From contig JAUSGZ010000017.1 of the NCBI GenBank assembly GCA_030648715.1, positions 5,108 through 69,107 of the forward strand: a stretch of 64,000 nucleotides of DNA, written 5' to 3'. Within the stretch, counting starts at the first letter, position 1. Each line of letters starts with the position of its first letter. Origin of the DNA: a bacterium (GTDB lineage Bacteria > Patescibacteriota > Patescibacteriia > Buchananbacterales > GWA2-38-13). The notes below the pieces were generated by a model. It made no database searches and was not told the origin of the DNA. It saw only the letters and a list, made by a program, of their open reading frames with translations. A program made the position numbers and the translations under genes. Positions 20,038 to 59,000 of this stretch are shown here, piece by piece.

Positions 20038-20054
20038 AGGCAGCGTATCCCCAG

Positions 20055-21785: not shown

Positions 21786-21801
21786 ACGCGAGCAAAAAAC
21801 T

Positions 21802-22140: not shown

Positions 22141-22148
22141 AGTTGGTG

Positions 22149-24556: not shown

Positions 24557-24561
24557 GCTGC

Positions 24562-36361: not shown

Positions 36362-36405
36362 CACTGGAGGGAAATGCAGAACAGCGTTATACTGAAACCG
36401 TCCGT

Positions 36406-42405: not shown

Positions 42406-42465
42406 CCAGTCGCGCGGGAGCACGCCCCGAATTCCAGATTCTCGTTGCGGGAGGTGGATTTTTTT

Positions 42466-43818
42466 ATGCCCAAGGCCAAAGCCGTGTACGTCTGCGCCAA
42501 ATGCGACGCCCAGTTCCCGAAGTGGCTCGGGCGCTGCGCGGAGTGCGGAGGATGGGGAACCATCGCGAGTACTCCCGTTGCGGTCAGCGCGCCCGCGCCG
42601 ACCCGCCCACCGTCCGGCCAGGTCATCAGTTTTGCCGACGTCCTCGGCGACAACGTCAAACGGCTGCCCAGCGGCATGGATGAATTCGATCGCGTGGTCG
42701 GTGGAGGTTTAAGCCAAGGGTCCGTCACGCTGCTGACCGGCGAACCCGGCATCGGCAAATCGACGCTCGTGCTCCAGGTGGCCGACCGGATCGCCCGCCA
42801 CTCCGGCAAAACGGTGCTGTACGTATCCGGCGAAGAATCCGCGAGCCAGATCAAGGACCGCATCACCCGCTTGGGCGTGACGGCGGCGGGGATTTCCTAC
42901 CTCGGCGCGACGTCCGCGGAAACCATCGCCGCCACCATCACCGCGCATCGTCCGCCGCTGGCGATCGTAGATTCCGTTCAGACGGTCCGTGCCGACCGGA
43001 ACGCCGGTGAACCCGGGAGCGTCGGCCAGATCCGCGCTGCGACCGCAGTACTCATAGAGGCGGCGAAAACCTCGGCGACCGCGGTCCTGCTCATCGGCCA
43101 TATCACGAAAAGCGGCGACGTCGCCGGGCCAAAAACGCTCGAACACCTCGTGGATACGGTCATTGGACTTGAAGGCGACGGCACCCAGCACTACCGTCTG
43201 CTCCGGACGGTCAAGAACCGATTCGGCGCCGCCAATGAGCTGGGCGTTTTTGAAATGAAGGGCGGCGGCCTGCAAGAGGTAACGAACCCCTCGGCGATGT
43301 TCTTGGCCGGACGGGTTACCCAGCAGCCGGGCGCCGTCGTCGCCCCGGTCGTGATCGGCACCCGCGTATTTTTGGCCGAGATCCAGGCGCTCGTGTCATG
43401 GACGCGGTTCGGCTACCCGCAACGCAAGGCGGTGGGCTACGACTTCAACCGCCTCAACCTCATCGCCACGGTACTTGACCAGCGGGCCGGCATCCGGCTC
43501 GCGAAAAGCGACATCCACGTAAAGATCGCCGGGGGCCTGCGCGTCAACGACCCGGCCGCCGACCTGGCAGTCGCACTGGCCATCATCTCCGCACAACGCA
43601 AACGAACGATCGACCCCCATACCGCCGCGTGCGGCGAACTGGGACTCAGCGGCGAGATCCGGCCGATCGCACGGTTGGATGCGCGACTGCAGGAATCGAC
43701 GAAACTCGGCTTTACGTCCGTTCTGTGCCCCCGTCCGGGAGATTCGGCCCAGTTGCCGCCCGCAGCGCTCCCGATCGACAGCATACAAACCGCAGTGCGC
43801 GAGCTGTGGGACGGCTGA
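42466..43818 (+). CDS. radA: DNA repair protein RadA (Sms)
   Basis: N-terminal Zn finger CAKCDAQFPKWLGRCAECGGWG, Walker A LLTGEPGIGKSTLVLQVA, KNRFG motif, and a Lon-protease-like C-terminal domain. Confidence 0.9.
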   Translation: MPKAKAVYVCAKCDAQFPKWLGRCAECGGWGTIASTPVAVSAPAPTRPPSGQVISFADVLGDNVKRLPSGMDEFDRVVGGGLSQGSVTLLTGEPGIGKSTLVLQVADRIARHSGKTVLYVSGEESASQIKDRITRLGVTAAGISYLGATSAETIAATITAHRPPLAIVDSVQTVRADRNAGEPGSVGQIRAATAVLIEAAKTSATAVLLIGHITKSGDVAGPKTLEHLVDTVIGLEGDGTQHYRLLRTVKNRFGAANELGVFEMKGGGLQEVTNPSAMFLAGRVTQQPGAVVAPVVIGTRVFLAEIQALVSWTRFGYPQRKAVGYDFNRLNLIATVLDQRAGIRLAKSDIHVKIAGGLRVNDPAADLAVALAIISAQRKRTIDPHTAACGELGLSGEIRPIARLDARLQESTKLGFTSVLCPRPGDSAQLPPAALPIDSIQTAVRELWDG

Positions 43819-43830: not shown

Positions 43831-45912
43831 TCACTCCAAATGGACAAGGGCTTGTAAGTCCGCGACCTGCTTGCGCAGGACCGCGTGCTGGGCAAGCTCA
43901 GGGTCTTGGTGAAGGAGTGCGGCCGCCTCATGCTTCGCGATCTCGGCCACCTCCAGATCGGCTAACGTCGCCAGGCGCAAGTGGGAAAAACCGGACTGCA
44001 GCGTCCCCAGCAACTGCCCCGGCCCGCGAAATTTCAGATCCAATTCCGCCAGTGCAAAGCCATCTTTCGCCTGCAAGAATGCGGCGAGCCGCTCGAGAAC
44101 TTCGGGGCTGGTCGCGTCGGCGCAGAGAAAACAGTACGATTGGTGGCCCGAACGGCCGACCCTTCCGCGCAATTGGTGCAGTTGACTCAGCCCGAACCGC
44201 TCGGCCCCTTCGATCACGATGATGGTGGCATTGGGTACATCCACGCCCACTTCCACGACCGTGGTCGTCACCAGCACCGACGTCCGATTCGCCAAAAAAT
44301 CCGCCATGGTGGTGGTCTTTTTTTCCGCCGAAAGTTTGCCATGGAGGACGCCGACGCGAAGGTCGGGAAAAACGCGCTGCTGCAGTTCCGCCAGCTCGGC
44401 AGTGACCGCCTTGACCCCGAACCGATCCGACGGATCGATCAGCGGACAAACCACGAACGCCTGCCGCCCAACTGCGACCTGGTCGCGAATGAACTGGTAT
44501 AATCGCTGCCGTGCAGCCGCCGAAACCAGCTGGGTCACCACGGTCTTGCGTTCGCGCGGCCGCTGACGAATGGCGCTGATCGCGAGGTCGCCGTACAGCA
44601 CCAGCGCAAGCGATCGCGGGATCGGTGTTGCCGTCAACGACAGGAAATGAGGACTGGCGCCGCTCCCCGCCGCGACCAGAAGCTGGCGCTGCTGGACGCC
44701 GAACCGGTGCTGCTCGTCAACCGCGGCAAGCGTCAGTTGTTGCCAGCGCACCGACTCCTGCAACAACGCGTGCGTACCGACCACAAGGTCGAGCTCTCCG
44801 CGGCCAAGCATGGCAAGAATTTCTGCTTTTTTGAATCGGCCGGGCTGCGGCGCGGTGGCGTCACGCGCCTGGACGAACCGCTGCGTACGCGTGAACAAAC
44901 CGACGGCAACGGGAAAGTCGGCAAACATCCGACAAAATGTTTGAAAATGCTGGACGGCCAAGATCTCGGTCGGCGCCATCACCGCGGTTTGCCCGCCGGA
45001 CAGGGCGACGTTCAACGCGGCAATGGCAACCACCACCGTCTTGCCGGCGCCGACATCGCCTTCGAGCAACCGATGCATCGGCACCGATCGCTGGAGGTCC
45101 TGCAAAATTTTCCACGCCGCTGCTCGCTGGTCTTGGGTCAGCGTGAATGGGAACGATTGCACCAGCCGCGTCGTCGCGTCGCGCTGGAATGGCACGGCAT
45201 GAGCAGCGATCTGGGACATCTGCCAGCGCGCCTGTTGCAATGCCAGCTGCAGAACGAAAAATTCGTCGAATTTCAAACGCCGCAGCGCTGACTCCAGCGC
45301 CTGGCGATGTTGGGGAAAATGCACCTGCTGAATCGCCCACCCCCGCGTCGCCAGCTGCAAACGCTGACGGAGCGCCGGCGGCAAACCATCGGGCACCAGG
45401 CTTGCCGCCGGCAGCGCCTGCTGCACCAGCGCGCGGATCTGCCGCTGGGTGACCCCCTCGGTAGCGGGGTACACCGGTACCAAACGCGCCGTGTGCAAGG
45501 TGAGCTGACGATAGAGTTCAATGCTCGGATTCACGAGCTGCAGCTGGCGGAATTCGTAGCTCGCCTGTCCCGCCAGATACACGTCATCACCGGGGCGAAA
45601 CTGACGAACTAAATAGGGCTGATTGAACCACACCGCCAGAATCGAACCGGTGGCGTCAACGATAACTGCTTCGGTGAGCATGAGACGTCGCCGCGGGCTG
45701 CGCCGATTCTCGATCAGCTCGATACGGCCTCGCACGGTGGCTACCGTGCCCGCTGCCAAACGACCAATGGGCAATATCGTCCCGAAATCATCGTACCGGA
45801 ACGGATAATGGCGCAGGAGGTCGTGGACCGTGCGAAGACCCAAACGACTGAGCCGCGCGGCGGTGGCGCTGCCGACCCGACTCAGATGCCCCAACGCCAT
45901 CCCCGGCGTCAT
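43831..45912 (-). CDS. recG: ATP-dependent DNA helicase RecG
   Basis: N-terminal wedge domain, helicase motif I GDVGAGKTVVVAIAAL, DEQHRFGV (motif II), TATPIPRSL, and the C-terminal helicase domain. The start is ambiguous (45912, 45900 or 45933). Confidence 0.85.
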   Translation of the reverse strand: MTPGMALGHLSRVGSATAARLSRLGLRTVHDLLRHYPFRYDDFGTILPIGRLAAGTVATVRGRIELIENRRSPRRRLMLTEAVIVDATGSILAVWFNQPYLVRQFRPGDDVYLAGQASYEFRQLQLVNPSIELYRQLTLHTARLVPVYPATEGVTQRQIRALVQQALPAASLVPDGLPPALRQRLQLATRGWAIQQVHFPQHRQALESALRRLKFDEFFVLQLALQQARWQMSQIAAHAVPFQRDATTRLVQSFPFTLTQDQRAAAWKILQDLQRSVPMHRLLEGDVGAGKTVVVAIAALNVALSGGQTAVMAPTEILAVQHFQTFCRMFADFPVAVGLFTRTQRFVQARDATAPQPGRFKKAEILAMLGRGELDLVVGTHALLQESVRWQQLTLAAVDEQHRFGVQQRQLLVAAGSGASPHFLSLTATPIPRSLALVLYGDLAISAIRQRPRERKTVVTQLVSAAARQRLYQFIRDQVAVGRQAFVVCPLIDPSDRFGVKAVTAELAELQQRVFPDLRVGVLHGKLSAEKKTTTMADFLANRTSVLVTTTVVEVGVDVPNATIIVIEGAERFGLSQLHQLRGRVGRSGHQSYCFLCADATSPEVLERLAAFLQAKDGFALAELDLKFRGPGQLLGTLQSGFSHLRLATLADLEVAEIAKHEAAALLHQDPELAQHAVLRKQVADLQALVHLE

Positions 45913-46076
45913 TCCGACATCGGCTGCTCTCATACGTCCGTCAGTATACCAGAAGCAATTAAAAAAACGGCTCGCTCATAGGCGAACCGCGCTCGACCGT
46001 TGTCTCCCCTTTGCGCCCGGCAGGGCTTTCACCCCACACCTTTTTGGTATGGATGAGAGGTATATCTTTTTACCTT

Positions 46077-47936: not shown

Positions 47937-48088
47937 GTGTTGGTTCAAAGTTGGACATCTGGCCGTGGCGGTGGGGGTGAGATTCTCTGCCTTCGGGAAA
48001 CCACCCGTAGGGTGGGTACCCACAGTACCCTTGCTGGTTCAGCAGTTTTTCCGCCTGCGGCGGATCCGCCGTAATATTTATTTTAGAA

Positions 48089-48175
48089 CGGAGGGGGCGA
48101 GATTCGAACTCGCGAGACCATTCCTGGTCTACTGGTTTTCAAGACCAGCCCTTTCAACCGCTCAGGCACCCCTCC
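48089..48175 (-). tRNA. tRNA-Ser (anticodon TGA), class II with long variable arm
   Basis: GGAGGGGTGCCTGAGCGGTTGAAAGGGCTGGTCTTGAAAACCAGTAGACCAGGAATGGTCTCGCGAGTTCGAATCTCGCCCCCTCCG. Anticodon loop CTTGAAA, variable-arm stem AGACC/GGTCT, T-loop TTCGAAT. Confidence 0.85.
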
Positions 48176-48190
48176 GTTCTAAAATCCTTA

Positions 48191-48325
48191 CCTATGGAGG
48201 CGGACAAGACCAGCGCATTCGTCCACTCTGCCAACCCACCAAAACTAGATGGTGGTTTTTCACCCTTCGGGTGATCCCCCGTAGGGGGACAAGACCGTCC
48301 CGTTCGTCCACTCTGGCACCCCTCC
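48191..48325 (-). other. Two tandem tRNA 5'-half-like fragments (acceptor+D-arm+anticodon-stem-like, no T-arm) separated by two small GC hairpins; probable pseudo-tRNA remnants
   Basis: rc of 48283..48325 is GGAGGGGTGCCAGAGTGGACGAACGGGACGGTCTTGTCCCCC. rc of 48194..48240 is GGTGGGTTGGCAGAGTGGACGAATGCGCTGGTCTTGTCCGCCTCC. Both resemble the 5' half of the adjacent tRNA-Ser. No TTCGAAT T-arm follows either. Confidence 0.4.
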
Positions 48326-48349
48326 GATCGGGCAAGGATGCGACCCTCC

Positions 48350-48670
48350 CTAGCGCGCCACCGAATTCTTGCGGTCCAAAAATCGCGTGACTTGGCCCTC
48401 CAATTTATCCACCGACAGATCGAGTGCTTTATGCAGCGCGTGGCTGGTCGCCTGCGCATACCCTTCATCCCATGACGGCACTCCCAGCTGCAGCGTGACC
48501 TCAAAAGCGTTGTGATGGCGGAAGTAGACGGCGTGCACCTGCAGACTGACGCTGTCGGTCGGGTAGTGCGAAAGCAGTTTCTCAAGCCGGGCTTGCTTCT
48601 GATCCAGATAGGCGCGAAAACCATCTTTCGCATTCTCGGCAACATCCTGGAATGTGACCGTCACCAGCAT
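48350..48670 (-). CDS. hpf: Ribosome hibernation-promoting factor / RaiA-like (ribosomal S30AE family)
   Basis: 106 aa, MLVTVTFQDVAENAKDGFRAYLDQKQARLEKLLSHY...VHAVYFR...FEVTLQL. This is the short HPF/YfiA architecture. Confidence 0.75.
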   Translation of the reverse strand: MLVTVTFQDVAENAKDGFRAYLDQKQARLEKLLSHYPTDSVSLQVHAVYFRHHNAFEVTLQLGVPSWDEGYAQATSHALHKALDLSVDKLEGQVTRFLDRKNSVAR

Positions 48671-48679: not shown

Positions 48680-48766
48680 AAATTAAAATCGGAGAGGGTG
48701 GGATTCGAACCCACGAGGGACTTTCATCCCCAACGCCTTAGCACGGCGCCGCTTTCGACCGCTCAG
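48680..48766 (-). tRNA. tRNA-Ser (anticodon GCT), class II
   Basis: GGAGAGGTGGCTGAGCGGTCGAAAGCGGCGCCGTGCTAAGGCGTTGGGGATGAAAGTCCCTCGTGGGTTCGAATCCCACCCTCTCCG. Anticodon stem GCGCC/GGCGT, loop GTGCTAA, long variable arm, T-loop TTCGAAT. Confidence 0.8.
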
Positions 48767-48867
48767 CCACCTCTCCACAGGCGTACTCCGTCAAGGCACG
48801 ACATCGGTCAATAATTTTTTTTAACCGACCGTGTCATCATACCAGAAATGTCGCCTCCTGTCCAGCC

Positions 48868-49608
48868 TTAGCCGTGCGCCAGGGCCAGGGCAACCACCTC
48901 GTGGGACCCCGCATCCCGCAACGCTTGGGCGCAGGCGCGCATCGTGCTGGCGGTGGTCACCACGTCGTCCACCAGCAGGACTCGGCGCGGCGCCATACCG
49001 CTGACCGAGAACGCTCCCCTGACGTTTTTCAGCCGCGTTCGCTGCGGAAGTCCGACCTGCGGCCGGGTCGCCCGCACGCGGAACAGGACATCCTCACGCA
49101 AAGGCCAGCTGAAATGTTGCGCCACGGGGACGGCGAGCAAGGCCGCCTGCTGGTAGCCGCGCGCCAGGAGTCGACGCCGGTGCAGGGGTACGGGAATGAC
49201 CGCGTCAAATGCTTTTGACCATGCCCCGGCATAACGAAAGTGTTCAAGATGTGCAATGAGCAGTTCCGCCAACGGATCTGCTAAGGCTTGCACCCCGGTG
49301 TACTTCAACGACTCCACAGCCCTCGCCAGGGGGTTCTGCCGATACGGACAAGCGGCAAACAGCTGGGTCAGGGGGCAGGCAGCAACGCACGTAAGGCACG
49401 GACGGCCATCCGTGGACGGCCGCAAACAGCCGGGACAAAACCCGCTCCCACACTGCCGCAGGCCTGACAAACAGGCGGCGCACAGCCAGCTGCCCCGCTC
49501 CGCGCACCCGACGCAATGGGATGGGAACAGCGTTTCCAGAATACGCGCACGGACCTTGGCGGCCCACCTCGATTGCAACACAAATTTTTCTTCCCGAATT
49601 TCGGCCAA
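48868..49608 (-). CDS. comFC: ComF family protein (ComFC/GntX phosphoribosyltransferase-like competence protein)
   Basis: N-terminal 4-Cys Zn motif (CVGCAERGSWLCAAC...CPGC) and a C-terminal PRTase fold with RVLLVDDVVTTASTMRACAQALRDAG. Confidence 0.8.
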   Translation of the reverse strand: MAEIREEKFVLQSRWAAKVRARILETLFPSHCVGCAERGSWLCAACLSGLRQCGSGFCPGCLRPSTDGRPCLTCVAACPLTQLFAACPYRQNPLARAVESLKYTGVQALADPLAELLIAHLEHFRYAGAWSKAFDAVIPVPLHRRRLLARGYQQAALLAVPVAQHFSWPLREDVLFRVRATRPQVGLPQRTRLKNVRGAFSVSGMAPRRVLLVDDVVTTASTMRACAQALRDAGSHEVVALALAHG

Positions 49609-49631
49609 CGTTCAGGGGCAAAACGTCAGGC

Positions 49632-50204
49632 TCACTGCCATGAGGCCCCGTCGACGCGCCAACCTGCGGTATTCTTTACCAGGGTCACCGTCAATTTCTG
49701 GTAAAACTGCTGCCGTCCCCCACCGGTCCGGGTTTCGGAGCGCTGCGTCTGCACCACGACCTGCGCCTCCGTTTCCTCGCTGTTCAGAGCAACGATCTCG
49801 GCCGACAATACTTTGGTCGTAACGCCGTAGAAGCCGTCGCCCAGAAGTACCTGCTGCTGGGCCGAACGCGCGGTAACGGCGAATTGCTCGGTCATCAGCG
49901 GTTGGAGCTGCTGCAAATTCGTGCTCCCGCCGTGCGTGGAAAAACTGCCGAAACGCTCCGCGAAGGTCTTGGCCAGCGCCTCGAGCGTGGCCTGGGTTTT
50001 TGGCTCTTTGGTCACCGGCGGCTCCACGGGTTGGGTCACGGTTCCCCCAACGGGCGGCAGCGTCGTACCGGCCCCAGGCAAGGGTGACACCTGCTCGGGG
50101 CCCAATGGACGCGCCGGACGCGGAGCACGCGCGATGAGCACCAGCGCAAGCACCACCACGAGCGCCAATACGAGAATAACGATTATTTTTGTCCGTTTGG
50201 TCAT
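49632..50204 (-). CDS. Membrane-anchored hypothetical protein, last gene of the VirB4 operon before comFC (possible VirB8-like/accessory component)
   Basis: N-terminal TM KIIVILVLALVVVLALVLIA, Pro-rich linker, ~120-aa globular C-terminal domain. ATGA-type overlap with the VirB4-like stop. Confidence 0.45.
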   Translation of the reverse strand: MTKRTKIIVILVLALVVVLALVLIARAPRPARPLGPEQVSPLPGAGTTLPPVGGTVTQPVEPPVTKEPKTQATLEALAKTFAERFGSFSTHGGSTNLQQLQPLMTEQFAVTARSAQQQVLLGDGFYGVTTKVLSAEIVALNSEETEAQVVVQTQRSETRTGGGRQQFYQKLTVTLVKNTAGWRVDGASWQ

Positions 50205-52168
50205 ACGTTTTCACGTTGATGAGCGGCTGTTTTCCGCTCCTTGGGAGCGCCGGTCTGGTCTTCCATCGACTGCGCGAAGTCCTTTTTGGCCTGCTCGATC
50301 TCCAGCAGCTGCCGCGGGTCCGACGTGATGAGCTGGTCTTCGGCGTACGAAGCGACGACCTTGATGGCCGCGTGCTTGTCACCGGCGAAAAAGATCCCCT
50401 CCCCGACGCCGCACTCCAGCAGCAGGTACTTTTCGCCGTCGGTCAGAACGAATGTTTTGGCGATGAGGTCGATGGATGCGGATGACTGGCGCATCAGCAC
50501 CTGGATGGAACTGTTGGTGACGATCGCCGACCCATACGGCGAAAGCAGGAAATCATTGACGTCCTGGGTGATGGTGGTCACCCCCAGGTAGTACTTGCGG
50601 CAGCGCTTCACGAGGGCATAGATGAACTTTGCCGAGTCCTCATATTGCATCAGCCACCAGGCTTCATCGATGACCATGATGCGGCGCTTCAGCTCGGAGC
50701 GCACGACGTTCCAGATGTAATTGATGATGGTGTAAATCGCGATCGGCCGCAGCTCGTCTTCGAGGTCCCGAACGGAAAAGACCACCAGCTGGTTGTGCAC
50801 GTCGATGTTGGTGGGGCTGTTGAACAAACCGGAGAACGTTCCCTGCGTGTACTTCTGCAGCCGAATGACCAGGTCGCCCGACCCCTCCATACCTTCCAGC
50901 ACCTCTTGGAAATCCTGCATGATCGGTGCTTCCACCGTGGCGAGGTCGGAGTTGGCCGTGATGTCTTTCTTGGCGTAGGTTTCCAGCAGCGCGCGGTCGA
51001 TGAGCGAGTCTTCCTGCGGAGAGAAACCGAGCTTACCCGAATCACCGATAGGCTTGCCCAGCATGATGCGCAGCAGCCCCTTGAGCGTGATGACCGCGCC
51101 GCGGATGATGTCGCCGGCGCGCTGGTCGCCGACGGGCCGCGGGAGGTCGAACGGATTGAGCTTGCTCTCCGAGGACAAAGAAATATTGATGTAGGTGCCG
51201 CCGACCGCGTCGCACAGATGCTGGTACTCGCGCTCGGGGTCGATAATGATGACGTCGGTGCCCAGCATCAGGGACCGCAGAACCTCCAGTTTGATGGTGT
51301 AACTCTTGCCGGCGCCGGAGGTGGCGAACACCACCATGTTCGCGTTCTGCAGGCTAAAACGGTCGAACAGGATCAGGCTGTTGTTGTGGCGGTTGATGCC
51401 ATACAGGACGCCATCATCCGAGGTCAGCTCCGACGAAATGAACGGGAATGAGCTGGCGATGGGCGACGAGTTCATGTTGAATGCGATCATCAGCATATCC
51501 TCACCCAACGGCATCGTCGAGGTGAACCCCTGCTCGGCCTGATAGAGTACCTTGCGCGAGTACACCAGCTTGCTGCCGAACAACGCCTCCACGTCGTCGG
51601 TCAGTCGCTCCAAAATCTTTCGGTCCTCGGCGTAGAGCGTCACGTACAGCCCAAATTGGAAGAAATGCTCGATCCCCTGGGTCAAGTCATCCCGCAGCTG
51701 CTCGATGTCGCGCAATGCCGTCTCGCGGATGGGGTCGCGGGGAGCGCCTTTCTCGCGGTCGGCGAGGATCTGCGCCTCAAGGTTACCGACCCGCTTCTTC
51801 AGCTGCTTGAGAATGACATCCGACCGCACGGGGTAGAAATACATTGAGATATCGAGCGGCAGGTTGAGGTTGATGATGGGCGCGAACCATCCGACCGTGA
51901 TGTACCTGGGGTAGCCGATGACGAACAGCGTCCGCACGAACAGGTCTCCCAGCATCAGGAAGGACGGCTTGACCTGGAAAGCCGCCGGCGCGATCAGGTC
52001 CCGGATGGAAATGAGGCCTTCGCGGTAGACGCGCTCTTCCTCGAGGATGACCTTCTCCTCGGTGATCTGCCGCTGCTCCAGCCGCTTGCGCTCCTCGGCC
52101 GACAGTGTCGGGGTCACGGGCTTCCCCGCCTGTTTTTCCTCGCGCTCGATTTGCTGTGGTTTGAACAT
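50201..52168 (-). CDS. virB4: VirB4/TrbE/ConE-family type IV secretion ATPase
   Basis: Walker A VVFATSGAGKSYTIK, Walker B VIIIDPEREY, C-terminal VMIDEAWWLM. The overall VirB4 (CagE_TrbE_VirB / AAA_10) architecture is present, 655 aa. Confidence 0.85.
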   Translation of the reverse strand: MFKPQQIEREEKQAGKPVTPTLSAEERKRLEQRQITEEKVILEEERVYREGLISIRDLIAPAAFQVKPSFLMLGDLFVRTLFVIGYPRYITVGWFAPIINLNLPLDISMYFYPVRSDVILKQLKKRVGNLEAQILADREKGAPRDPIRETALRDIEQLRDDLTQGIEHFFQFGLYVTLYAEDRKILERLTDDVEALFGSKLVYSRKVLYQAEQGFTSTMPLGEDMLMIAFNMNSSPIASSFPFISSELTSDDGVLYGINRHNNSLILFDRFSLQNANMVVFATSGAGKSYTIKLEVLRSLMLGTDVIIIDPEREYQHLCDAVGGTYINISLSSESKLNPFDLPRPVGDQRAGDIIRGAVITLKGLLRIMLGKPIGDSGKLGFSPQEDSLIDRALLETYAKKDITANSDLATVEAPIMQDFQEVLEGMEGSGDLVIRLQKYTQGTFSGLFNSPTNIDVHNQLVVFSVRDLEDELRPIAIYTIINYIWNVVRSELKRRIMVIDEAWWLMQYEDSAKFIYALVKRCRKYYLGVTTITQDVNDFLLSPYGSAIVTNSSIQVLMRQSSASIDLIAKTFVLTDGEKYLLLECGVGEGIFFAGDKHAAIKVVASYAEDQLITSDPRQLLEIEQAKKDFAQSMEDQTGAPKERKTAAHQRENV

Positions 52169-52272
52169 TGATGTTTGGGGCTAGTACCCGGTGCTCTGTA
52201 CCCAGTGCTCCGTGCGTATCGTCACCGTCGTAACTATACTGAGCACGGTGTACTGAGTACTGAGCACATGCG

Positions 52273-52995
52273 CTAGGGCTCGACCTGCAGTTGGTTAAGA
52301 TCGGCGAGCTTCTGCCGCTCGGATGCGCCGGGGTTGTAGGTGTTGTAGTACAGCTCAATCAGCCCCTGGGTGTCCAAGAGCGCCGCCTTCAACCCGATGC
52401 TGCCGAGCGACGCCACGACATGATCGACCCGCTGCATCAAGTCGCGCCGCCGCTGCAGGAACCGTTCGCGCGACAGCCGCACCGACCCCGCCGCCTTAAA
52501 GACCTCCAGCAGGCGCCTAAACCACCCCTTCTGCTTGTCGGACAGGGGATTGTGCGGCACCACAACGTAGAAGCGCTTGGTCATGATCTCGCCCAGCTCC
52601 ACCAGTTCGGTGACGTAGTTGCGGTACTCGGCAATCTGGAGTTTCAGCAGTTCATTGGTCTGCTCCTTTTCTTTCTGTTCCAGGCGCGTCAAGTAGCCGC
52701 TGATGTTGAGCTTACGCGACTGGATCAGGATCTGGAGCGGAAAATCGATGGCATTCAGGAAATTCACGTACGCCGCGATGATCGCGTTTTGCTCCTCCTC
52801 CGACTTGAGGGAAAAATTGATGCTGGATACCAGCAGCACCGCCCGCAGGGTACCGTCTTTGAGCACCGCGCAGTCCTCTTTGATCTCGGTGATCGGCAGA
52901 TGCCGCTGCGTTGACGGAGTTTTTGCCGCCGAACGCGCCGGCACTCCGGTGGAAGCGGCGCCCTTTGCGGTTGCGGTTTTTTTCAATTTAGCCAT
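52273..52995 (-). CDS. Hypothetical T4SS-associated protein (possibly VirB4 N-terminal-like accessory domain encoded as separate ORF)
   Basis: ITEIKEDCAVLKDGTLRAVLLVSSINFSLKSEEEQNAIIAAYVNFLNAIDFPLQILIQSRKLNI. It sits immediately upstream of the VirB4 ATPase. The start was trimmed to MAKLKK (ATG at 52993..52995) to avoid overlap. Confidence 0.45.
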   Translation of the reverse strand: MAKLKKTATAKGAASTGVPARSAAKTPSTQRHLPITEIKEDCAVLKDGTLRAVLLVSSINFSLKSEEEQNAIIAAYVNFLNAIDFPLQILIQSRKLNISGYLTRLEQKEKEQTNELLKLQIAEYRNYVTELVELGEIMTKRFYVVVPHNPLSDKQKGWFRRLLEVFKAAGSVRLSRERFLQRRRDLMQRVDHVVASLGSIGLKAALLDTQGLIELYYNTYNPGASERQKLADLNQLQVEP

Positions 52996-53008
52996 AGCGA
53001 AGTTCAAC

Positions 53009-53446
53009 TCAATCCTGGGCGGTTTCGCCCTCGTAGACGCCACCGGTATCCACGATCAAGGATAGCTCCACGAGCCGCGAGCTCCCCACCAGGGGCTTGT
53101 GGCGGGGCGGAACGATGGGTTTGGTCGTGATCTCCTTCATGGCCAGCTGGAGCTCGGCCGGCGTCAGCCGCTTGTCCCAGAGCGTGAGGCGCGGCCGCTT
53201 CATGGTTTGGATAAAATTGAGGATGAAATAATGGACCGGACGGCCGTTGATCTTGATGAACGCGAACACGATCGTCAACACCGCGATCACCAGCAGCCAG
53301 AACAGGAACAGGGTGAAGTCGGAGATCTTGTACGCCAGGAACACCATCCCGCCGGACACCAGTAAAATAATGAACTGGCGCACCGTGATGGGGCCGATCA
53401 CCTTGTCTTCCACATCGAGGAATTGCGGAACCACGAACTGCTGCAT
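53009..53446 (-). CDS. Small 2-TM membrane protein, PrgI/VirB3-like first gene of the T4SS-like sub-operon
   Basis: 145 aa with two hydrophobic helices (FIILLVSGGMVFLAYKI; LFLFWLLVIAVLTIVFAFI). It is positioned directly before the VirB4 genes. Confidence 0.5.
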   Translation of the reverse strand: MQQFVVPQFLDVEDKVIGPITVRQFIILLVSGGMVFLAYKISDFTLFLFWLLVIAVLTIVFAFIKINGRPVHYFILNFIQTMKRPRLTLWDKRLTPAELQLAMKEITTKPIVPPRHKPLVGSSRLVELSLIVDTGGVYEGETAQD

Positions 53447-53461: not shown

Positions 53462-53547
53462 ATTTGACCCTTAACCATTGACCGTGATTCGATTGTTCAG
53501 GTCAAATGTCAATTGTCAAAGGTTAATTGTTAACGATTAAAACCTCA
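53462..53547. promoter_or_regulatory. Third copy of the composite heptad element (4 forward nTTnACC heptads + 6 GGTCAAA-type heptads) between the Pro-rich gene and the PrgI-like gene
   Basis: TTTAACA TTTGACC CTTAACC ATTGACC (53462..53489), then GGTCAAA TGTCAAT TGTCAAA GGTTAAT TGTTAAC GATTAAA (53506..53547). Confidence 0.5.
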
Positions 53548-54721
53548 ACGTCCGATTAAAATCAGCAATCGCCTCGAACTCGGCCACGCTCAGGATCGAC
53601 GTTCCGGGGGTTGCATTTGAGCCCAGCATTTCACTGATCGGCCGCTTCTCCGCCATCGCGCGACCAGCGGTCGCCGTGTAAAGGTTGAATACTTCGCAGG
53701 ACCGCCAGGCGGCGATGGCGGCCGCTTTGTGAGCAAAGGATTGCTGTTCAAGCAGGACGATCTTTTCGCGTAAACGATCCGTCGCGCGGCGCGGGTCGGC
53801 ATCCAAACGGCGAAAGTCTTGCAGAGTCATCTGGCCGATCTCTTCCAGGGGGCCAACCAGCTGCGGCCGGTACCGTACTGCCGGCACTTCCTCTGCCATG
53901 GGCTCTGGGGACGGCGTGAACGGTTCCGTTGCTCGAGCTACGGGCGGCAGCATTGCTGGCGGCGCGAGAGGTGGAACAGCGGGCACTGGTTGCGGGAACC
54001 TCGTCGGCACCGGTAATGATGGCGGCTCCAGCGGTACCGCCGACGGGACCGGCGAAACAGCGGCGGAGGGGCGGCTCATCAACGGAGGACGCGTCGGGGG
54101 ACGGACTGGCGGGAGTGGCGGCACCGTCGGAGGAAGAGCGGCGGGCGGTAACGGCTGCAGGGACATGCGCCGCGGCGGCGCGATCGGCGCGGCAGGTACG
54201 GGTGCGGAAGGCGTTAGCGGCGCAACCTCGCTGACGTTGGCCTGCAGCTGGGCGACGGCTTGGTCCTGCTGCCGGCGGCTGGCTTCGCTGAAACGGCGGT
54301 AGTGTCTTTCGATGACCACGGACGACGTTTCGGCCTGCTCGGCCGTGAACCCGAGCCCGCCGACCTTCAGTGGCCGCGCCATTGCCTCGCGGGTTTCAAT
54401 GGCATCCCGCACATCCTTGAACCGCGCCAAGATATGGGTACGCAGACGTTTTTGGAGTACCGGGTCGGGCAACGGCAACGCCAACTCCTTGATGACTTGT
54501 TCAACGAACGATTCCACGGGGGACGATTGGGAGGGAAGCGCCGCAGGCACGGACGCAGGAAGTAACGGCACGGCCGTCGGTACGGCGCTACGCCACGGCT
54601 CCACGATACCGCCGCGCAACACCTTCAGCTGCCCATCGGCGTCCTTAAAGAGTACCTCCTCGCTGCCGGTAAACGGATTGTACACAGCCTCTGGCATGGG
54701 TAACAGGTTCACGGCAACCAC
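53537..54721 (-). CDS. Hypothetical proline-rich protein
   Basis: 394 aa with a central ~130-aa segment of PxxP/PPLPP repeats and a folded C-terminal region. Translationally coupled (13-nt overlap) to the upstream gene. Confidence 0.5.
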   Translation of the reverse strand: MVAVNLLPMPEAVYNPFTGSEEVLFKDADGQLKVLRGGIVEPWRSAVPTAVPLLPASVPAALPSQSSPVESFVEQVIKELALPLPDPVLQKRLRTHILARFKDVRDAIETREAMARPLKVGGLGFTAEQAETSSVVIERHYRRFSEASRRQQDQAVAQLQANVSEVAPLTPSAPVPAAPIAPPRRMSLQPLPPAALPPTVPPLPPVRPPTRPPLMSRPSAAVSPVPSAVPLEPPSLPVPTRFPQPVPAVPPLAPPAMLPPVARATEPFTPSPEPMAEEVPAVRYRPQLVGPLEEIGQMTLQDFRRLDADPRRATDRLREKIVLLEQQSFAHKAAAIAAWRSCEVFNLYTATAGRAMAEKRPISEMLGSNATPGTSILSVAEFEAIADFNRTLRF

Positions 54722-56001
54722 TTGAAGGTCTTTTCCCGGACATCAAAGTACGCCAATTTTTCATACTGATGCCGCCCGCGCTGCTTAAAAATATTGGATA
54801 GCTGCGCACCGACGCGCGCGGCATCATGCTCGGGCACATCCAAACGCTCCTGTAGCACATATTGTATAAACAACTGCACCGACTGTCTACTCAACGGCTG
54901 CCGCACGAGCGTGTCCGCCGCCGCTTGGCCGTACAACGATGGCCACACCGACCGCAGGTGCTGCTGCAACGCCTGGTCATTGGCGAGTAACCGCTCCAGC
55001 TGGTCGTTCTCCGCCAACAAGCGCATCGTCGCGACCGTGCGAGGCACGTTCCGCGACTGCACCGCCGCGAAGAACTCGGCGGCCAATTTTTTCTGGTCAT
55101 TACCGGCCTTGGCGCGGATGCCAGACACGGCCTCAGTGACCGCCCGCTGGTCGGCATCGCCGCCGCGGTAGGCAGCGACGATATGCCCCAACGCGGGGGC
55201 AGTCACCGCTGCGGAGGCGAAATCCGTGATCGCTTTACCGCCAACCCGTTCCACCACCGGTTCCTGGACGGTGCGCTCTTCCACGATGGGCGCCTTGTGC
55301 GGGAAGCGCAACAGGTCGTAGGTCTCCAGCAGTTTGGTGAGAATTTCACGGTCGGCGTTGTTCAGCCGCTTGACGTTGGCATCCCGCTGCAAAAAATGGG
55401 CGCGTTCCACCGGTCCGCGTTCCTGGTTCAGGGGGAACGAACCGTTGTAGGCCCGCAGCCAATTCTGCACCGTCGGGTCTAAACGCTCCGGGTTCTCCGG
55501 CACGGTGAGCGGCGTTTCTCCGATCGTTTCCAAATTCAACCCGATAACCCGTAAAATGGTGTTGCTTGCGTTCACCGCCAATTCGGGTTCGCCATAACTG
55601 ATGAGCGCTGCTTGCAGCCCAGCGGCCAGATTCAAGCCCGCTCGCAAGGCCATGACGGTGCTGGCTTGGAATACCCCCTCAACATCGCGAATCCGCAGTA
55701 AGGCAACTCCGACAACCTTCAAAATGGCGATGATCTGCTGGAGTCGTTCTTCATCGGTAGCATCCAGAAGCGTTCGGTCCGAGCTGGAAGAAAGCAGCCC
55801 CTGCAGCCGTCGCGCCAGTTGCAGCGCCAATCCCCATTCATGCGCTTCATCCAGATAGAGCGCAGTGGCATAGAGCCGTTCGAACGCCCTGGGCTGCTTC
55901 AACCAATGCACATCAACAAATGCGAACTCTTCCTCGGTCAAACCCTGGTCAAGGTCGGGTTTCCGGGTCGCGAGAAAGTGATATGTCAGATGTTCGGCCA
56001 T
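54709..56001 (-). CDS. Hypothetical cytoplasmic protein (430 aa) translationally coupled to the giant TrbL-like gene
   Basis: No TM segments and no recognisable family. The start lies 5 nt after the stop of the giant gene. Confidence 0.5.
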   Translation of the reverse strand: MAEHLTYHFLATRKPDLDQGLTEEEFAFVDVHWLKQPRAFERLYATALYLDEAHEWGLALQLARRLQGLLSSSSDRTLLDATDEERLQQIIAILKVVGVALLRIRDVEGVFQASTVMALRAGLNLAAGLQAALISYGEPELAVNASNTILRVIGLNLETIGETPLTVPENPERLDPTVQNWLRAYNGSFPLNQERGPVERAHFLQRDANVKRLNNADREILTKLLETYDLLRFPHKAPIVEERTVQEPVVERVGGKAITDFASAAVTAPALGHIVAAYRGGDADQRAVTEAVSGIRAKAGNDQKKLAAEFFAAVQSRNVPRTVATMRLLAENDQLERLLANDQALQQHLRSVWPSLYGQAAADTLVRQPLSRQSVQLFIQYVLQERLDVPEHDAARVGAQLSNIFKQRGRHQYEKLAYFDVREKTFKWLP

Positions 56002-56006
56002 ACTGC

Positions 56007-59000
56007 TTAAATGGTTGGTCGGCCTTTCGGCGGTTCGCCGGATAAGGATTCTGGAGAAATTGCAGGGATTTCTGGTACGCCGGTTGACCCTTCCTTGCTC
56101 TGCGCCATCTCCTGCAAAGACTTATTGATCTGGAAAAGAAGGTCTGCAAGCTCGTCGGCTTGTTCCCTTGTCACCCCAGCCCCGGCTTCGGCAGATACCT
56201 GCGCCTCGCCGATACGCGCCACACCATCACGCAAATTCTTGCCCAAAACATCAAATTTCTTGCTTGCGTCTTTATCGGTCATGCCAGCCTTTTCCTCCTG
56301 TTCGGATAACGTTGTCGCAAGCGACTGTACGCTGCCAGAAACCTGCGCCAGCGCTTCGCTCATGGTCTTGAGCATCTTGTTCAGGGTGGCGAGGTCGGCA
56401 GTCGGAAACGCTTTTACCACCTCCGCCTGCCGCTCAACTTGTTCTGCGGCGTGCGCTGCTATCTTTTGGGACGTCACGGTCGCAGCCGGAGGCGTCGGTG
56501 AATCCGCTGGTTGTACGGGCGCGGGGGAAGACGGATGTGCAGCTACTGGGGATGGCTCTTGGACGGGTTGGGACGCTCGAGGCGATGTGGACTTACGAGC
56601 CGCACGCCTTGCCTCCACTTCCTTGGCCAAGTTATCGGTATGTGATGTACCCCCGCGATCAATACCGCGGCCAACCGCCGAAAGCTGGTTACCGAAAAGA
56701 TTTCGGGCAACCGCGGCTGCCTTCTGGACATCCTCAGGGGTCGCGCCGTGCATCACCACGTTATCAAATCTATATTTCGCCCGTTGCCCGGTTGGAGCAA
56801 CTTTCACTTGGCCGTTATAGCCTGCCTTCGCCAAAGCCGCCATAAATTGATTCAAGCGTTCCGGCGTAAGATCCCGCAGCGTGTCTTTGAACGTCAAATA
56901 ACCTTTGTGGGTTTCTCCCGTTGATTCTTTGCCTTTGCCAACCTGGTAATTCAGCCAATCCGACTCTGCTCCGATAGCGCGGACATTCTCAACTTGGGTC
57001 TTCCCACTCCCTACTTCATTCCAATTGTTAGTTTGTTTTTTACCGAACTCCTTCAATGATTCAAGCAACCCGGGAGTTGAAGCCATCTCTTTGGCGATAT
57101 CAGACTCTTGCAAGTGGCGCAGTTCCGCCTTTCGCGTCAATAGATTGTAGACATCCGCGCCAGTTACCTCTAAACGATTTTGGGTCAGATACTCCGCAAA
57201 TTCATCCTGGGACATGGCGGCAATCTCATGTTGAGATGGCGAATGCAGCGCAGACGGCGCGGAACCTAGTCCTGCAGTTCCTGTGGGGGGTTGCGCCGGC
57301 CCGGCAGCTGTTTTGGCAGAAATCTTTGGCGGCGGAACAGCCCGTACCGAGGGCGGCTCAATGCCCTCAGCCGCGGCTTCGGCCGCACGACCAACATTTT
57401 CTTCCGCCGCAGTGGCGGTGGCCTCCACCTGTTCAACCAACCCGACCAGACCCGCGGAGAAATCCTGAATTTCTCCCATTCTTTGTTCGATCTGCCCCAT
57501 CTCTTCGGTTCGTTGAGCGATCGCCTGCTGCGCCTTGCGCAGGGCGGCAACATTACCCGTTGACCGGGCCTTCTGGGCAGCCGCCCCCTGCTGCTGCAGC
57601 GCAGCCCCTGCCGCAATACGACGCTTGTCCAACTTCTCGTACTCTTTGCTCATGGCTGGGATTTCCTGCTCCCCGATCGTTTTCGCTTCTTGCAAACGAC
57701 GCTGAGCGATCACCAACTCTTCTTGCGCGAGCACGAGATCGCTCACATCGGCAGCGTTCTTCAGCACCAAATCATCCCACTCGCCGATCTCCTTATCGAC
57801 ACCCTTGATCTGGCCACCCACCGTATTGAAACGGTCTTGGGCGGCCTTCACCGCATCATCAGCGCGCTTGCGTTCCGTACCCGGCGCGGCCTGGGCCTGC
57901 CGCTCTTGCTGCTTCCGCAGGTCTTTCTCCGCGGCTTGATGCTGCTTGACCAACCCTGTCCGCTTCTCGGCGAGCTCGGCATAGTTGAAATCACGCTTCA
58001 CTTTTGCGACATTGAGCTCCTGGTCCGCATCTTTCAAGCCGCTACCCTTGACTTTGGGGGCTAGACCGAGACGGCGACGCTTCACGGTGTAATCCAGCTG
58101 GTCGCGAATGATCTGCGCTCGCTGCGCGCGGTCGTGCGCCGCCCGAGCGCCCGCCGCATCCCCTTGGGTCGCCTTTTCTTCCGCCTCCTTGTTATTCGCT
58201 TCCAATTCGGACTGGGCATGGCTAAGTTGCTGGGCCAGTTCATCCTTACTCAATGTGCCAGCCGCGTCCCGAACAGCGGCAGCGAACGTTTCCAGAGACT
58301 GCACGGATTCCTCAACCCGGCGCCGGTAATCGGCTTGCGCGCCTTCCAGCGCCTGGGAGTCCCTGGCGACGACGTCCTGCTGTTCAGTAACGGCATCGGT
58401 GGCGGCGGTAACCTCCTGCTGCTTGGCACGGGCCAACGTTTGGGCCTCCTCCTGGGCCTGGTAGTTCCCCTCTTCGACTGCCCGGCGGGCCTGCGCGTTC
58501 AATTCCGCGAGCTCAAGCTGCCGCTGGTCGCGCACCTTGACGCGATTTCCCAATTCCTGCTGGCTAGCCCGCACGATCTGTTCCTTGGCGCCGATCTCCT
58601 GCTTGGCACCCGCCACCTCCTCACGGTTTCCCTGGCGCGCCGTCAAAAACTTCTCTTCCACGGCAGTCAGCGACTGCTGGCCCTTGCTGACCGGTACGGG
58701 CTTAGGTTGCAACGCCTGCACCGCGCGCTCCTTGGCCTGTACCTCCTGCTGCTGTTTTGCGATGCGCTGTTGCGCGGTACGCAGATCCCGTTCCGCGGCC
58801 TGGGCCAGGCGTTCCTGCCTCCCGGCTTCTTCCTGGCTGCCTTGGTCTGCGGCCCGCTTCCTCAAGCGGTTATGCACCTGGGCGCGACGGGCAAGCTCAT
58901 CGCGATTCTGTTCCAATTCCGTCAATTTGCCGCGGCTTTCCGACAGCTCCTGCTGCGCGCGCGCCGCTACATTCTCGGGCTTTGCCGCCTCGCGGCGCTG

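Follow-up and report, generated by a model that had tools for sequence, protein, structure and literature searches.

A chromosomal type IV secretion locus ending in comFC in an ABY1-class Patescibacterium, and its possible role in DNA import

Layout of the locus

Within the window, the whole 64,000-nucleotide stretch of DNA analysed here, the minus strand between positions 48868 and 53446 carries genes for a PrgI/VirB3-like protein, a 240-aa protein, a VirB4 ATPase, a membrane protein and ComFC, in this order (Table 1). Pfam and NCBIfam scans of the open reading frames (ORFs) bear out a preliminary description of this segment as a module resembling a type IV secretion system (T4SS) and organised as a tight string of genes that ends in comFC. 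The VirB4 gene overlaps the gene for the 190-aa membrane protein by 4 nt; the spacing from there to comFC is likewise tight, although the gap measures 23 nt (49608/49632) and not the 24 nt originally given. The genes assigned to the module also stand, but its limits do not, as it further takes in p394, p430 and a giant gene. As the giant gene probably encodes an extended VirB6/TrbL-like protein, the module reaches position 63998, where the window ends, or beyond.

Other tRNA genes besides the one that closes the unit lie close by, downstream of comFC. A terminator scan detected no terminator-like site in the intergenic spaces of the T4SS and comFC genes, and the frequency of such sites was not above that in shuffled sequence. 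Judged by gene order and spacing, the T4SS genes and comFC may be co-transcribed. A promoter-like site in the 90-nt gap 5′ of the PrgI-like gene may be an internal promoter of the PrgI-to-comFC unit, though it is a candidate only, since such sites are no commoner than in shuffled sequence.

Table 1. Features of the T4SS-comFC locus and its surroundings, with window coordinates.
Feature	Coordinates	Strand	Remarks
Type IV pilus locus	16527-25704		pilin, PilC, PilT, response regulator, PilB, PilO-like, PilM
RadA/Sms-like recombination protein	42445..43818	+	Pfam zinc ribbon, KaiC-type ATPase, Lon_C/ChlI; context
RecG helicase	43831..45933	-	NCBIfam RecG 5.9e-232; conserved context, outside operon
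tRNA-Ser	48689-48777		3′ of comFC, closes the unit
ComFC (ComF/GntX family)	48868..49608	-	N-terminal double zinc ribbon and type I phosphoribosyltransferase-like domain; last gene
VirB8-like bitopic membrane protein, 190 aa	49632..50204	-	one N-terminal transmembrane helix
VirB4-family ATPase	50201..52168	-	without the usual N-terminal ~150 residues
TrsD-like protein, 240 aa	52273..52995	-	stand-alone homologue of VirB4 N-terminal domain
PrgI/VirB3-like small membrane protein	53009..53446	-	Pfam PrgI 6.6e-9, 36.6 bits against 27-bit cut-off
Promoter-like site	53492..53519	-	TTGACA-16 nt-AACAAT; consensus scan
p394, conserved T4SS-associated protein	53537..54721	-	fold unknown, without transmembrane helix
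p430, soluble protein of unknown function	54709..56001	-	between VirB6-like gene and p394
Probable extended VirB6/TrbL-like protein (giant gene)	56007..63998	-	gene continues past window end

Components and their conservation

A scan for relatives retained 80 species genomes and confirmed at least 432 candidate stretches as relatives. The order p394-PrgI-TrsD-VirB4-VirB8-like is nearly universal among the retained genomes (in the matches listed), a recurrence that places the arrangement beyond chance. The comparison also bore out the suggestion of a monoderm CPR cell and identifies the organism as an ABY1-class Patescibacterium near Uhrbacteria and Magasanikbacteria.

The VirB4-family ATPase matches Pfam P-loop_TraG (8.4e-30) and AAA_10, and exceeds the cut-off of NCBIfam conju_CD1110 (1.3e-99; 334.5 bits against 325; model positions 154-730 of 752). 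Its nearest solved relative is a Thermoanaerobacter VirB4 (PDB 4AG5, 2.3e-45, against 2.5e-5 for TrwK). Walker A (ATSGAGKS) lies at residue 282, and the translation shows a Walker-B-like VIDEAW. NCBIfam and PDB similarity scores, rather than a tree, place the protein in the Gram-positive FATA/CD1110 type. Its sequence is 68-90% identical across at least 80 related species genomes, and among the matches listed its median identity (72%) is above that of RecG (45%).

The 240-aa protein, whose longest ORF extends to 53043, matches NCBIfam VirB4_plasma (1.1e-11; model 102-235), NCBIfam TrsD/TraD (3.4e-8), positions 3-103 of the CD1110 VirB4 model and Pfam TraC_F_IV (1.5e-3). All of these matches fall below the curated cut-offs and the homology is thus remote; a profile search of PDB sequences returned nothing. 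Its gene sits directly 5′ of virB4 in 75 of 75 loci, with a median identity of 58% (among the matches listed). Judged by these alignments, the TrsD-like protein and the 655-aa ATPase appear to amount to a split VirB4.

Three membrane proteins accompany the motor. Of the Pfam families proposed earlier as search targets, AAA_10 was matched by VirB4, and the small membrane protein scores above the PrgI cut-off and matches TcpE (4.6e-5). It has two transmembrane helices (residues 16-34 and 46-64), and its gene was found in 74 of 74 loci (among the matches listed). The 190-aa protein has the bitopic NTF2-fold architecture of VirB8, with a transmembrane helix (residues 3-25), a linker and an NTF2-like domain (residues 68-189); the assignment is structure-based and was added by the present analysis. 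By sequence match, at least 55 of 74 loci (among the matches listed) have its gene immediately between virB4 and comFC. The family comprises about 2,000 clusters and is without a Pfam model; only about 50 VirB8 homologues were detected in an earlier survey (PMC12102498).

The giant gene encodes an unusually long protein (>2,663 aa, with about 180-220 N-terminal residues outside the window), whose polytopic membrane domain leads into a ~2,400-aa hydrophilic extension with a high content of Ala, Glu, Gln and Arg. Transmembrane segments lie within the first 180 residues present in the window. Residues 2 to ~250 align with residues ~180-450 of a polytopic protein at the same position in 53 of the 53 relatives compared; these proteins have 810-1,832 aa and 4-10 transmembrane segments. 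The one Pfam family that recurs among the orthologues is TrbL (8 of 51; best 5.9e-6, 26.6 bits against 25.9), against which the window's partial copy scores no better than E=0.39. A profile search of PDB sequences matched nothing. With the giant gene product taken as VirB6-like, the string holds all four minimal components of a monoderm translocon: VirB6-like, PrgI/VirB3-like, split VirB4 and VirB8-like. Neither the TrsD-like identity of the 240-aa protein nor the VirB8-like nature of the membrane protein nor the probable VirB6-like nature of the giant gene product (a channel subunit) figured in the preliminary description.

Two further products, p430 and p394, are lineage-specific soluble proteins encoded in the T4SS string. 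p394 comprises a small beta domain and a helical domain and, beyond a proline-rich linker, a conserved domain of helices at the C terminus; the NCBI annotation gives it 386 aa and a start at 54697. p430 matches no Pfam or NCBIfam family and nothing in the PDB. It is detectable only in closer relatives (16 loci by tblastn; 9 of 55 with enough upstream room, among the matches listed), and its position in other relatives is taken by zero to three unrelated soluble proteins of 300-760 aa.

ComFC matches Pfam Pribosyltran (4e-6) and DZR_2 (4e-5) and aligns at full length with NCBIfam GntX (1.1e-33; model 22-223 of 227) and TIGR00201 ComF (9.5e-24), below the equivalog cut-offs. It has the features that mark ComF/ComFC proteins, a four-cysteine zinc finger (C32, C35, C43, C46) and a type I PRT-like domain with a PRPP-loop motif DD..T...T (D214, D215, T218, T222), and these residues are invariant in 60 orthologues. 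H. pylori ComF (7p0h) aligns with it at the PRT core only. The position of the TTG start carries an uncertainty of about 10 codons, and the protein evolves fast relative to VirB4 (median identity 32% in related loci, among the matches listed). To our knowledge, ssDNA binding and a role in transformation are known for ComF homologues only in H. pylori, B. subtilis and S. pneumoniae.

Among the matches listed, 55 of 62 loci (89%) have comFC on the same strand no more than 2 kb downstream, conserving the linkage first noted in this genome, and 7 of 70 lack it after the T4SS genes. The gap from the VirB8-like gene to comFC has a median of about 1.5 nt when maximal ORFs are taken, and the genes often overlap in relatives (same matches). 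The next conserved neighbours, p169 and RecG (the latter downstream on the same strand), are each kept in 13 of 37 loci with enough room (35%, among the matches listed). This difference in retention, together with the near-contiguity of the genes, exceeds what passive synteny would be expected to produce. The flanking order tRNA-Ser, tRNA-Ser, p169, tRNA-Arg, RecG is itself partly syntenic in relatives, however, so some of the comFC linkage could be frozen gene order. A RadA/Sms-like gene was found in at least 16 related loci.

Relation to known systems

Pfam scans of about 40 major ORFs across the 64-kb window turned up neither a relaxase nor a VirD4/TcpA-type coupling protein nor VirB9/VirB10, so that the early observation concerning relaxase and VirD4 holds for the ORFs scanned across the window; no integrase was found in it either. 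Upstream of the VirB6-like gene in relatives (18 ORFs sampled) there was again no relaxase, coupling protein (T4CP) or integrase; this region encodes M23-peptidase surface proteins, a T4SS_pilin-domain protein (in relative L031) and carbohydrate-binding proteins. No pilin/VirB2 gene lies between the giant gene and comFC in the window. The T4SS genes have a GC3 of 0.71-0.84, the same as the rest of the genome. Together with vertical inheritance across at least 80 species, these findings agree with the initial view of a T4SS-like system that is not a classical conjugative element.

The locus is a chromosomal, vertically inherited, non-conjugative T4SS typical of ABY1, derived from Gram-positive (MPF_FATA) conjugation machinery without its DNA-processing parts. 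We regard the identity of the parts as close to certain. A T4SS clade without relaxases, in which co-location with comF, recG and radA is specific to ABY1, has been described previously (Quinonero-Coronel et al., 2025, Microb Genom, PMC12102498); for most of the other classes a position near dnaA and dnaN is common (PMC12102498). The ORFs of our window show the marks of this clade, with ComFC, RecG and RadA present and relaxase and coupling protein not found. The published ABY1-type locus shares with it the FATA-like VirB4 clade, TrsD and PrgI/VirB3 adjoining virB4, a VirB8-like protein, chromosomal location, comF/recG/radA nearby and no relaxase or coupling protein in the vicinity. The VirB6-like protein of the published locus probably has its counterpart in the giant gene product. 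There is no essential difference, and the window is an instance of that locus. Since both the arrangement and the hypothesis that the Patescibacteria T4SS imports DNA or other macromolecules were already published (PMC12102498), the identification is secure and its novelty low: it is a rediscovery. The additions made here are modest and consist of the VirB8 and extended VirB6-like assignments, the split-VirB4 reading, the synteny numbers and p394 as a conserved component.

The conjugative MPF_FATA systems (pGO1, pCF10, pIP501, CTn2) have in common with the window VirB4 (CD1110), TrsD (pGO1 subclass), PrgI, a VirB8-like NTF2 protein (PrgL, TraM, TraH) and the lack of an outer-membrane complex. 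They also have a relaxase, a T4CP (PcfC or TcpA), oriT, adhesins and a mobile-element location, whereas the window T4SS has none of these conjugative features and persists in the chromosome throughout a bacterial class. The T4SS of Southlakia epibionticum (SEML1_0006-0019) is likewise Gram-positive-like and chromosomal, and neither a relaxase nor a coupling protein can be recognised in it (Wang et al., 2023, Cell, PMC10633639); its genes include TrsD, PrgI and VirB6 homologues. It differs in its array of VirB2-like pilins and cell-wall hydrolases, which is essential, and in its lack of comF linkage, and essentiality of the T4SS has been shown for Southlakia only (PMC10633639).

Two DNA importers invite comparison. 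Helicobacter pylori ComB also lacks VirD4, VirB11 and a relaxase, has VirB4 as its sole ATPase and cooperates with competence proteins in charge of ssDNA at the inner membrane (PMC12857230). It differs as a diderm, MPF_T-type system in which VirB2 and a VirB7/9/10 outer-membrane core serve dsDNA passage across the outer membrane; the window T4SS is monoderm and FATA-type, and no VirB9, VirB10, TrbI or CagX family match, and hence no outer-membrane core, was found in the ORFs scanned. We know of no H. pylori comB operon that includes comFC. The archaeal Ced system (Sulfolobales) is alike in concept, as a VirB4/HerA-like ATPase and membrane proteins import DNA with the assistance of type IV pili. 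We rejected homology to Ced as a system: VirB4 matches the CedB model in the P-loop region only (43 bits against a 700-bit cut-off), and no CedA-like protein or other Ced family was matched.

What the system may transport

The ultra-small Patescibacteria account for much of bacterial diversity; they are unable to synthesise nucleotides and spend their lives attached to other microbes. Theirs is the only T4SS known to be essential to its bearer's survival. The ABY1 operon ending in comFC is the best genomic hint of a tie between this T4SS and the handling of incoming DNA, at least in ABY1. In the model considered here, VirB3, VirB4, VirB6 and VirB8 components would build a conduit through membrane and cell wall at the site of host contact, powered by a VirB4 hexamer. 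Having neither relaxase nor coupling protein, the conduit could not launch conjugative DNA, and its likeliest substrate in ABY1 would be nucleic acid entering from a host cell or the environment. On the cytoplasmic side ComFC would accept it in the form of ssDNA, for processing by RecG and RadA, which are encoded nearby, and the system would be functionally analogous to ComB or Ced in a monoderm setting. If so, conjugation machinery would have been turned into a DNA importer a third time independently, ComB and Ced being the other two cases, and this would explain how cells unable to make nucleotides are supplied with nucleotides and genes.

Two readings of the locus carry little weight. A degenerate or cryptic Gram-positive-type integrative and conjugative element (ICE), with relaxase and coupling protein outside the window, would account for the homology of VirB4, TrsD, PrgI and the VirB8-like protein to MPF_FATA components and for the tRNA genes just downstream, and the window does end within the giant gene, leaving its upstream side beyond view. 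It is nevertheless very improbable, and a conjugative element is largely refuted: relaxase, T4CP and mobility signatures were not found in 64 kb or upstream in the sampled relatives, the same chromosomal context including the tRNAs recurs in many species, GC3 is host-like and VirB4 is more conserved than RecG (among the matches listed). Relaxases in surveyed Patescibacteria number only 109, in 103 genomes, and are rarely near virB4 (PMC12102498). The ComB-type label first attached to the system fares no better. The ATPase-poor composition and competence-gene association that it shares with ComB (PMC12857230) speak for orthology to the Helicobacter system, yet VirB4 is of the Gram-positive CD1110/FATA type (4AG5, 2e-45), published phylogeny groups the Patescibacteria VirB4 clade with MPF_FATA and not with ComB4/MPF_T (PMC12102498), the organism is monoderm, and neither a VirB7/VirB9/VirB10 core nor a VirB2 gene between giant gene and comFC was found. 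Strict ComB orthology is therefore scarcely credible.

The serious contest is between DNA import and a host-interaction conduit, which would export proteins or effectors or act as a pilus or channel for non-DNA nutrients taken from the host cell, with comFC a passenger through co-expression upon host contact or historical accident. We hold the two about equally likely: that the ABY1 T4SS imports DNA and hands it to ComFC is a tentative proposal, given somewhat less than even odds in our judgement, and the conduit has a comparable claim. For import we counted the conserved, close coupling to comFC (55 of 62 loci, among the matches listed), the invariant zinc-finger cysteines and PRT loop of ComFC, and the precedent of ComB, a DNA importer whose sole ATPase is VirB4 (PMC12857230). 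The adjacency of often overlapping or near-contiguous genes, kept far more often than the next neighbours (matches listed), likewise sits poorly with a passenger comFC, and window scans found no effector candidates and no coupling protein for recruiting protein substrates. The conduit draws on Saccharimonadia, for which a role of this kind has been proposed, the authors of the Southlakia study suggesting protein export or some other function (PMC10633639). In Southlakia, a member of that class and the one Patescibacterium tested genetically, the T4SS is essential, ComEC, ComF and DprA do not rank among the fitness genes and cells deleted for comEC are viable (PMC10633639, PMC12857230), which argues that the conserved core role of the T4SS is not Com-dependent DNA uptake. 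Strong VirB4 conservation (among the matches listed) fits an essential lifestyle function, T4SS_pilin-like and M23-peptidase surface proteins are encoded upstream in relatives, and relatives also keep part of the flanking order of tRNA, p169 and RecG. The confinement of the comFC link to ABY1 (PMC12102498) and, among the matches listed, the 7 of 70 loci without comFC and its low median identity also count against import, as does the complete type IV pilus locus in the window, since competence in Southlakia is attributed to type IV pili and ComEC (PMC10633639, PMC12857230). That pilus locus was correctly recognised at the outset, but its suggested link to the T4SS is weak, as it lies 23 kb away behind unrelated genes.

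A more specific form of the DNA-import proposal, which we consider unlikely, would make the ABY1 T4SS a contact-dependent importer that pulls host DNA through VirB6, VirB8, VirB3 and the split VirB4 and passes it directly to ComFC. VirB4 and ComFC would then replace the monoderm ComFA-ComFC motor, possibly bypassing ComEC, and p394, p430 and the ~2,400-aa VirB6 extension would be lineage-specific adaptors for reversed transport.

Gene content of the T4SS–comFC locus

The preliminary description had placed a PrgI-family protein, a 240-aa protein, a VirB4 ATPase, a membrane protein and comFC on the minus strand at 48868-53446, and Pfam and NCBIfam searches confirm all five there. The T4SS gene string is wider than these coordinates, and also includes the adjoining genes p394 and p430 and a giant VirB6-like gene. 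Its spacing is operon-like: the VirB4 gene and the 190-aa VirB8-like gene overlap by 4 nt, 23 nt separate the latter from comFC, and no intergenic terminator-like sites occur within the string, such sites being no commoner than in shuffled sequence. The translated VirB4 contains both a Walker A motif and a Walker-B-like VIDEAW motif. VirB3, VirB4, VirB6 and VirB8 types, the full protein set of a minimal monoderm T4SS, are thus encoded together in one string.

Features of the window, with positions and assignments
Feature	Position	Strand	Assignment
Glycosyltransferase/methyltransferase cluster	158-15816		GT4, GT2, several SAM methyltransferases, initiating sugar transferase (Bac_transf), Wzy_C/O-antigen-ligase-like protein
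Type IV pilus locus	16527-25704	-	pilin with N-methylation motif, PilC, 359-aa PilT-like ATPase, response regulator, PilB with MshEN domain, PilO-like, 597-aa unknown, PilM
519-aa protein	26136-27695	-	single TM helix
2,862-aa protein	27839-36427	-	right-handed beta-helix/NosD repeats
RadA	42445-43818	+	
RecG	43831-45933	-	
p169	46296-46805	-	small membrane protein
HAD-IIB hydrolase	46974-48023	-	NCBIfam 6.8e-9
HPF-like, 106 aa	48350-48670	-	ribosome hibernation factor-like; Pfam Ribosomal_S30AE 1.6e-9
tRNA-Ser(GCT)	48689-48777		next after comFC
ComFC	48868-49608	-	double zinc ribbon and phosphoribosyltransferase-like domain; NCBIfam GntX 1e-33, ComF 1e-23, full length
VirB8-like, 190 aa	49632-50204	-	single N-terminal TM helix
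VirB4 ATPase, 655 aa	50201-52168	-	Pfam P-loop_TraG 8e-30; NCBIfam CD1110-family VirB4 1e-99, exceeds curated cut-off
TrsD-like, 240 aa	52273-52995	-	VirB4 N-terminal model and TrsD/TraD matches
PrgI family	53009-53446	-	two TM helices; Pfam PrgI exceeds gathering threshold
p394	53537-54721	-	
p430	54709-56001	-	
Giant VirB6-like ORF	56007 to beyond 63998	-	TM helices within first 180 residues present in window

The TrsD-like protein matches N-terminal VirB4 models (VirB4_plasma positions 102-235 and CD1110 positions 3-103) in addition to the TrsD/TraD family, and the ATPase spans positions 154-730 of the 752 in the CD1110 model. The gene pair thus amounts to a split VirB4. The VirB8-like assignment is structure-based. 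Sequence-profile searches against PDB chains returned no significant match for the VirB8-like, TrsD-like, VirB6-like or p430 families; ComFC had no match among PDB chains as a single sequence, and as a profile matched only the generic phosphoribosyltransferase (PRT) core.

Residues 1 to ~250 of the part of the giant protein that falls in the window align to residues ~180-450 of a polytopic protein whose gene occupies the equivalent position in 53/53 relatives compared, which places ~200 N-terminal residues beyond the window. These orthologues comprise 810-1,832 aa with 4-10 TM segments, and the only Pfam family that recurs among them is TrbL/VirB6 (8 of 51, best 5.9e-6, over the gathering score). 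The link to TrbL was made through the orthologues because the giant protein itself has no Pfam match at E<=1e-3 (TrbL, window copy alone, E=0.39). We take the giant protein to be a channel protein of the VirB6-like type that is extended by a ~2,400-aa hydrophilic tail; this extension abounds in Ala, Glu, Gln and Arg and matches no family. AT skew on the plus strand is strongly negative over 56000-62000, down to -0.29, and coincides with this minus-strand extension. A homologue search with the N-terminal 350 aa retrieved one fragment only, and a p430 look-up aimed at the giant protein's N-terminus yielded only a 5.9-kb Logan contig ending short of it. For p394, the predicted model has two helical domains with a proline-rich linker between them, and no structural relatives of it were found. 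In the NCBI MAG, p394 bears the locus tag Q7S23_02065 and the VirB8-like protein Q7S23_02045, both on a 73,021-bp contig.

Conservation and neighbourhood

Loci from 80 species genomes (VirB4 identity 68-90%) were retained from a genome-collection scan that confirmed at least 432 candidate stretches as related. The informatively named relatives all belong to the Patescibacteria (Uhrbacteria, Magasanikbacteria, Falkowbacteria, Buchananbacteria and Parcubacteria). Many public TPA MAG records titled 'uncultured Gammaproteobacteria bacterium' (loci L002, L003, L005, L006, L009 and others) carry this Patescibacteria-type locus with 70-88% VirB4 identity; the titles are probably wrong placeholder taxonomy.

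We searched these loci with the window proteins (tblastn; counts are loci with the gene over loci with room for it). The TrsD-like gene lies directly upstream of virB4 in 75/75 loci, with PrgI (74/74) and p394 (66/70) also upstream; p394 is a conserved component, and p430 is recognisable in closer relatives only. Downstream of virB4, the VirB8-like gene was found in at least 55/74 loci, divergence limiting its detection, and comFC follows on the same strand within 2 kb in 55/62. Further downstream, p169 and RecG are each retained in 13/37. The linkage to comFC proposed in the preliminary description therefore stands, and the link it drew to the type IV pilus locus is weak. Median identities are 72% for VirB4, 58% for TrsD, 48% for PrgI, 45% for RecG, 33% for the VirB8-like protein and 32% for ComFC, making VirB4 more constrained than RecG, a helicase with a housekeeping role.

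The order comFC, tRNA-Ser, tRNA-Ser, p169, tRNA-Arg, RecG is seen again in many loci, and RadA is present in 16. No family could be assigned to p169, in which residues ~36-54 form a hydrophobic segment; its gene, found in 25/80 loci, tends in relatives to have the tRNA-Ser genes on one side and tRNA-Arg/RecG on the other. In relatives, the VirB6-like gene is preceded by genes for large surface proteins of the M23-peptidase type, a T4SS_pilin-domain protein, proteins that bind carbohydrate, or unknowns.

After the T4SS genes, comFC is missing in 7/70 loci. A hidden, diverged comFC was rejected for these, as the gene found there has neither CxxC pairs nor a PRT loop and in three encodes a membrane protein. 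In those three (L028 12817-14995, L034 3811-5944 and L076 12655-14924), a ~260-aa membrane protein and then a same-strand RadA replace comFC. A recombination gene thus stays next to the T4SS even where comFC does not.

Possible functions of the T4SS

This locus type is already known, and the window is one instance of it. A survey of Patescibacteria described VirB4 proteins that form a monophyletic clade with kinship to the Gram-positive MPF_FATA class, and TrsD, PrgI/VirB3, VirB6 and VirB2-like genes close to virB4; it detected very few homologues of VirB8, nearly all in the class ABY1, relaxases were almost absent and type IV coupling proteins (T4CPs) seldom nearby, and possible import of DNA or other macromolecules was proposed (Quinonero-Coronel et al., 2025, PMC12102498). 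The hypothesis of the preliminary description is the published one. Our refinements are the VirB8-like assignment and the size of its unannotated family, the recognition of the giant gene as an extended VirB6-like gene and of VirB4 as split, the synteny counts, and p394 as a conserved component.

Among ~40 major ORFs of the window, Pfam identified no relaxase, VirD4/TcpA-type coupling protein, integrase, VirB9 or VirB10, and no relaxase or T4CP occurs upstream of the VirB6-like gene among the genes sampled in relatives. The module is thus non-conjugative, in line with the preliminary description. A conjugative element of the ICE type is very improbable, given these absences, GC3 values of the T4SS genes (0.71-0.84) like those of the rest of the genome and a context that recurs across species; the locus is a stable chromosomal system. 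With VirB9 and VirB10 not found in the window ORFs, strict orthology to ComB is hardly credible, and homology to Ced was rejected. The interpretation in the preliminary description is partly supported: the module is a non-conjugative T4SS linked to comFC, and is not of the ComB type that had been put forward as a candidate.

We consider it quite possible, if short of probable, that this T4SS imports DNA and hands it over to ComFC. A conduit spanning membrane and cell wall and driven by VirB4 would be built from VirB3, VirB4 (with TrsD), VirB6 and VirB8, and imported DNA would pass from it to ComFC; without a relaxase or T4CP, such a conduit would be unable to export conjugative DNA. This reading is favoured by a comFC adjacency kept far better than that of other neighbours, by T4SS and comFC genes that are often overlapping or almost contiguous in relatives (median gap from the VirB8-like gene to comFC ~1.5 nt, maximal ORFs), by the nearby RecG and RadA and by the precedents of ComB and Ced for DNA import. 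It is about equally possible that the apparatus is a host-interaction or secretion conduit with which comFC is merely co-expressed. Southlakia genetics argues against DNA import: Tn-seq found the T4SS essential for epibiotic growth, whereas ComEC, ComF and DprA did not score as fitness genes, and deleting comEC abolished transformation but not growth (Wang et al., 2023, PMC10633639), and a 2025 review holds that T4SS essentiality there cannot stem from ComEC interaction (PMC12857230). Further points against import are the known competence route through type IV pili and ComEC, with a pilus locus in the same window, the restriction of the comFC link to one class (PMC12102498), a neighbourhood that is partly syntenic in general and the seven loci that lack comFC.

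Surface-related genes and a probable local insertion

A stand-alone CheY-like response regulator is encoded between PilT and PilB in the pilus locus and may regulate extension and retraction. Adjoining this locus are the 2,862-aa and 519-aa proteins, candidate giant surface adhesins. The glycosyltransferase cluster suggests that this reduced genome specifies an elaborate, methylated polysaccharide at the cell surface. The window further encodes LemA, an M48 peptidase, a Clp ATPase, RadA, RecG and three tRNAs.

The HAD-IIB gene, with a GC3 of 0.34 in a 47% GC stretch (genome GC3 ~0.75), sits between tRNA-Ser(TGA) and p169, where the closest relative among the matches listed, L001, has only ~195 nt; the gene was probably inserted recently from a foreign source, beside a tRNA gene. 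The HPF-like gene lies between two tRNA-Ser genes that are nearly adjacent in other loci of ABY1, a Patescibacteria class; it is conserved, with codon-like substitutions, only in the two closest relatives among the matches listed, L001 and L002. An ORF at 48154-48645 (163 aa) overlaps tRNA-Ser and was rejected as spurious, the real gene being the HPF-like ORF of 106 aa, which is read in a different frame.
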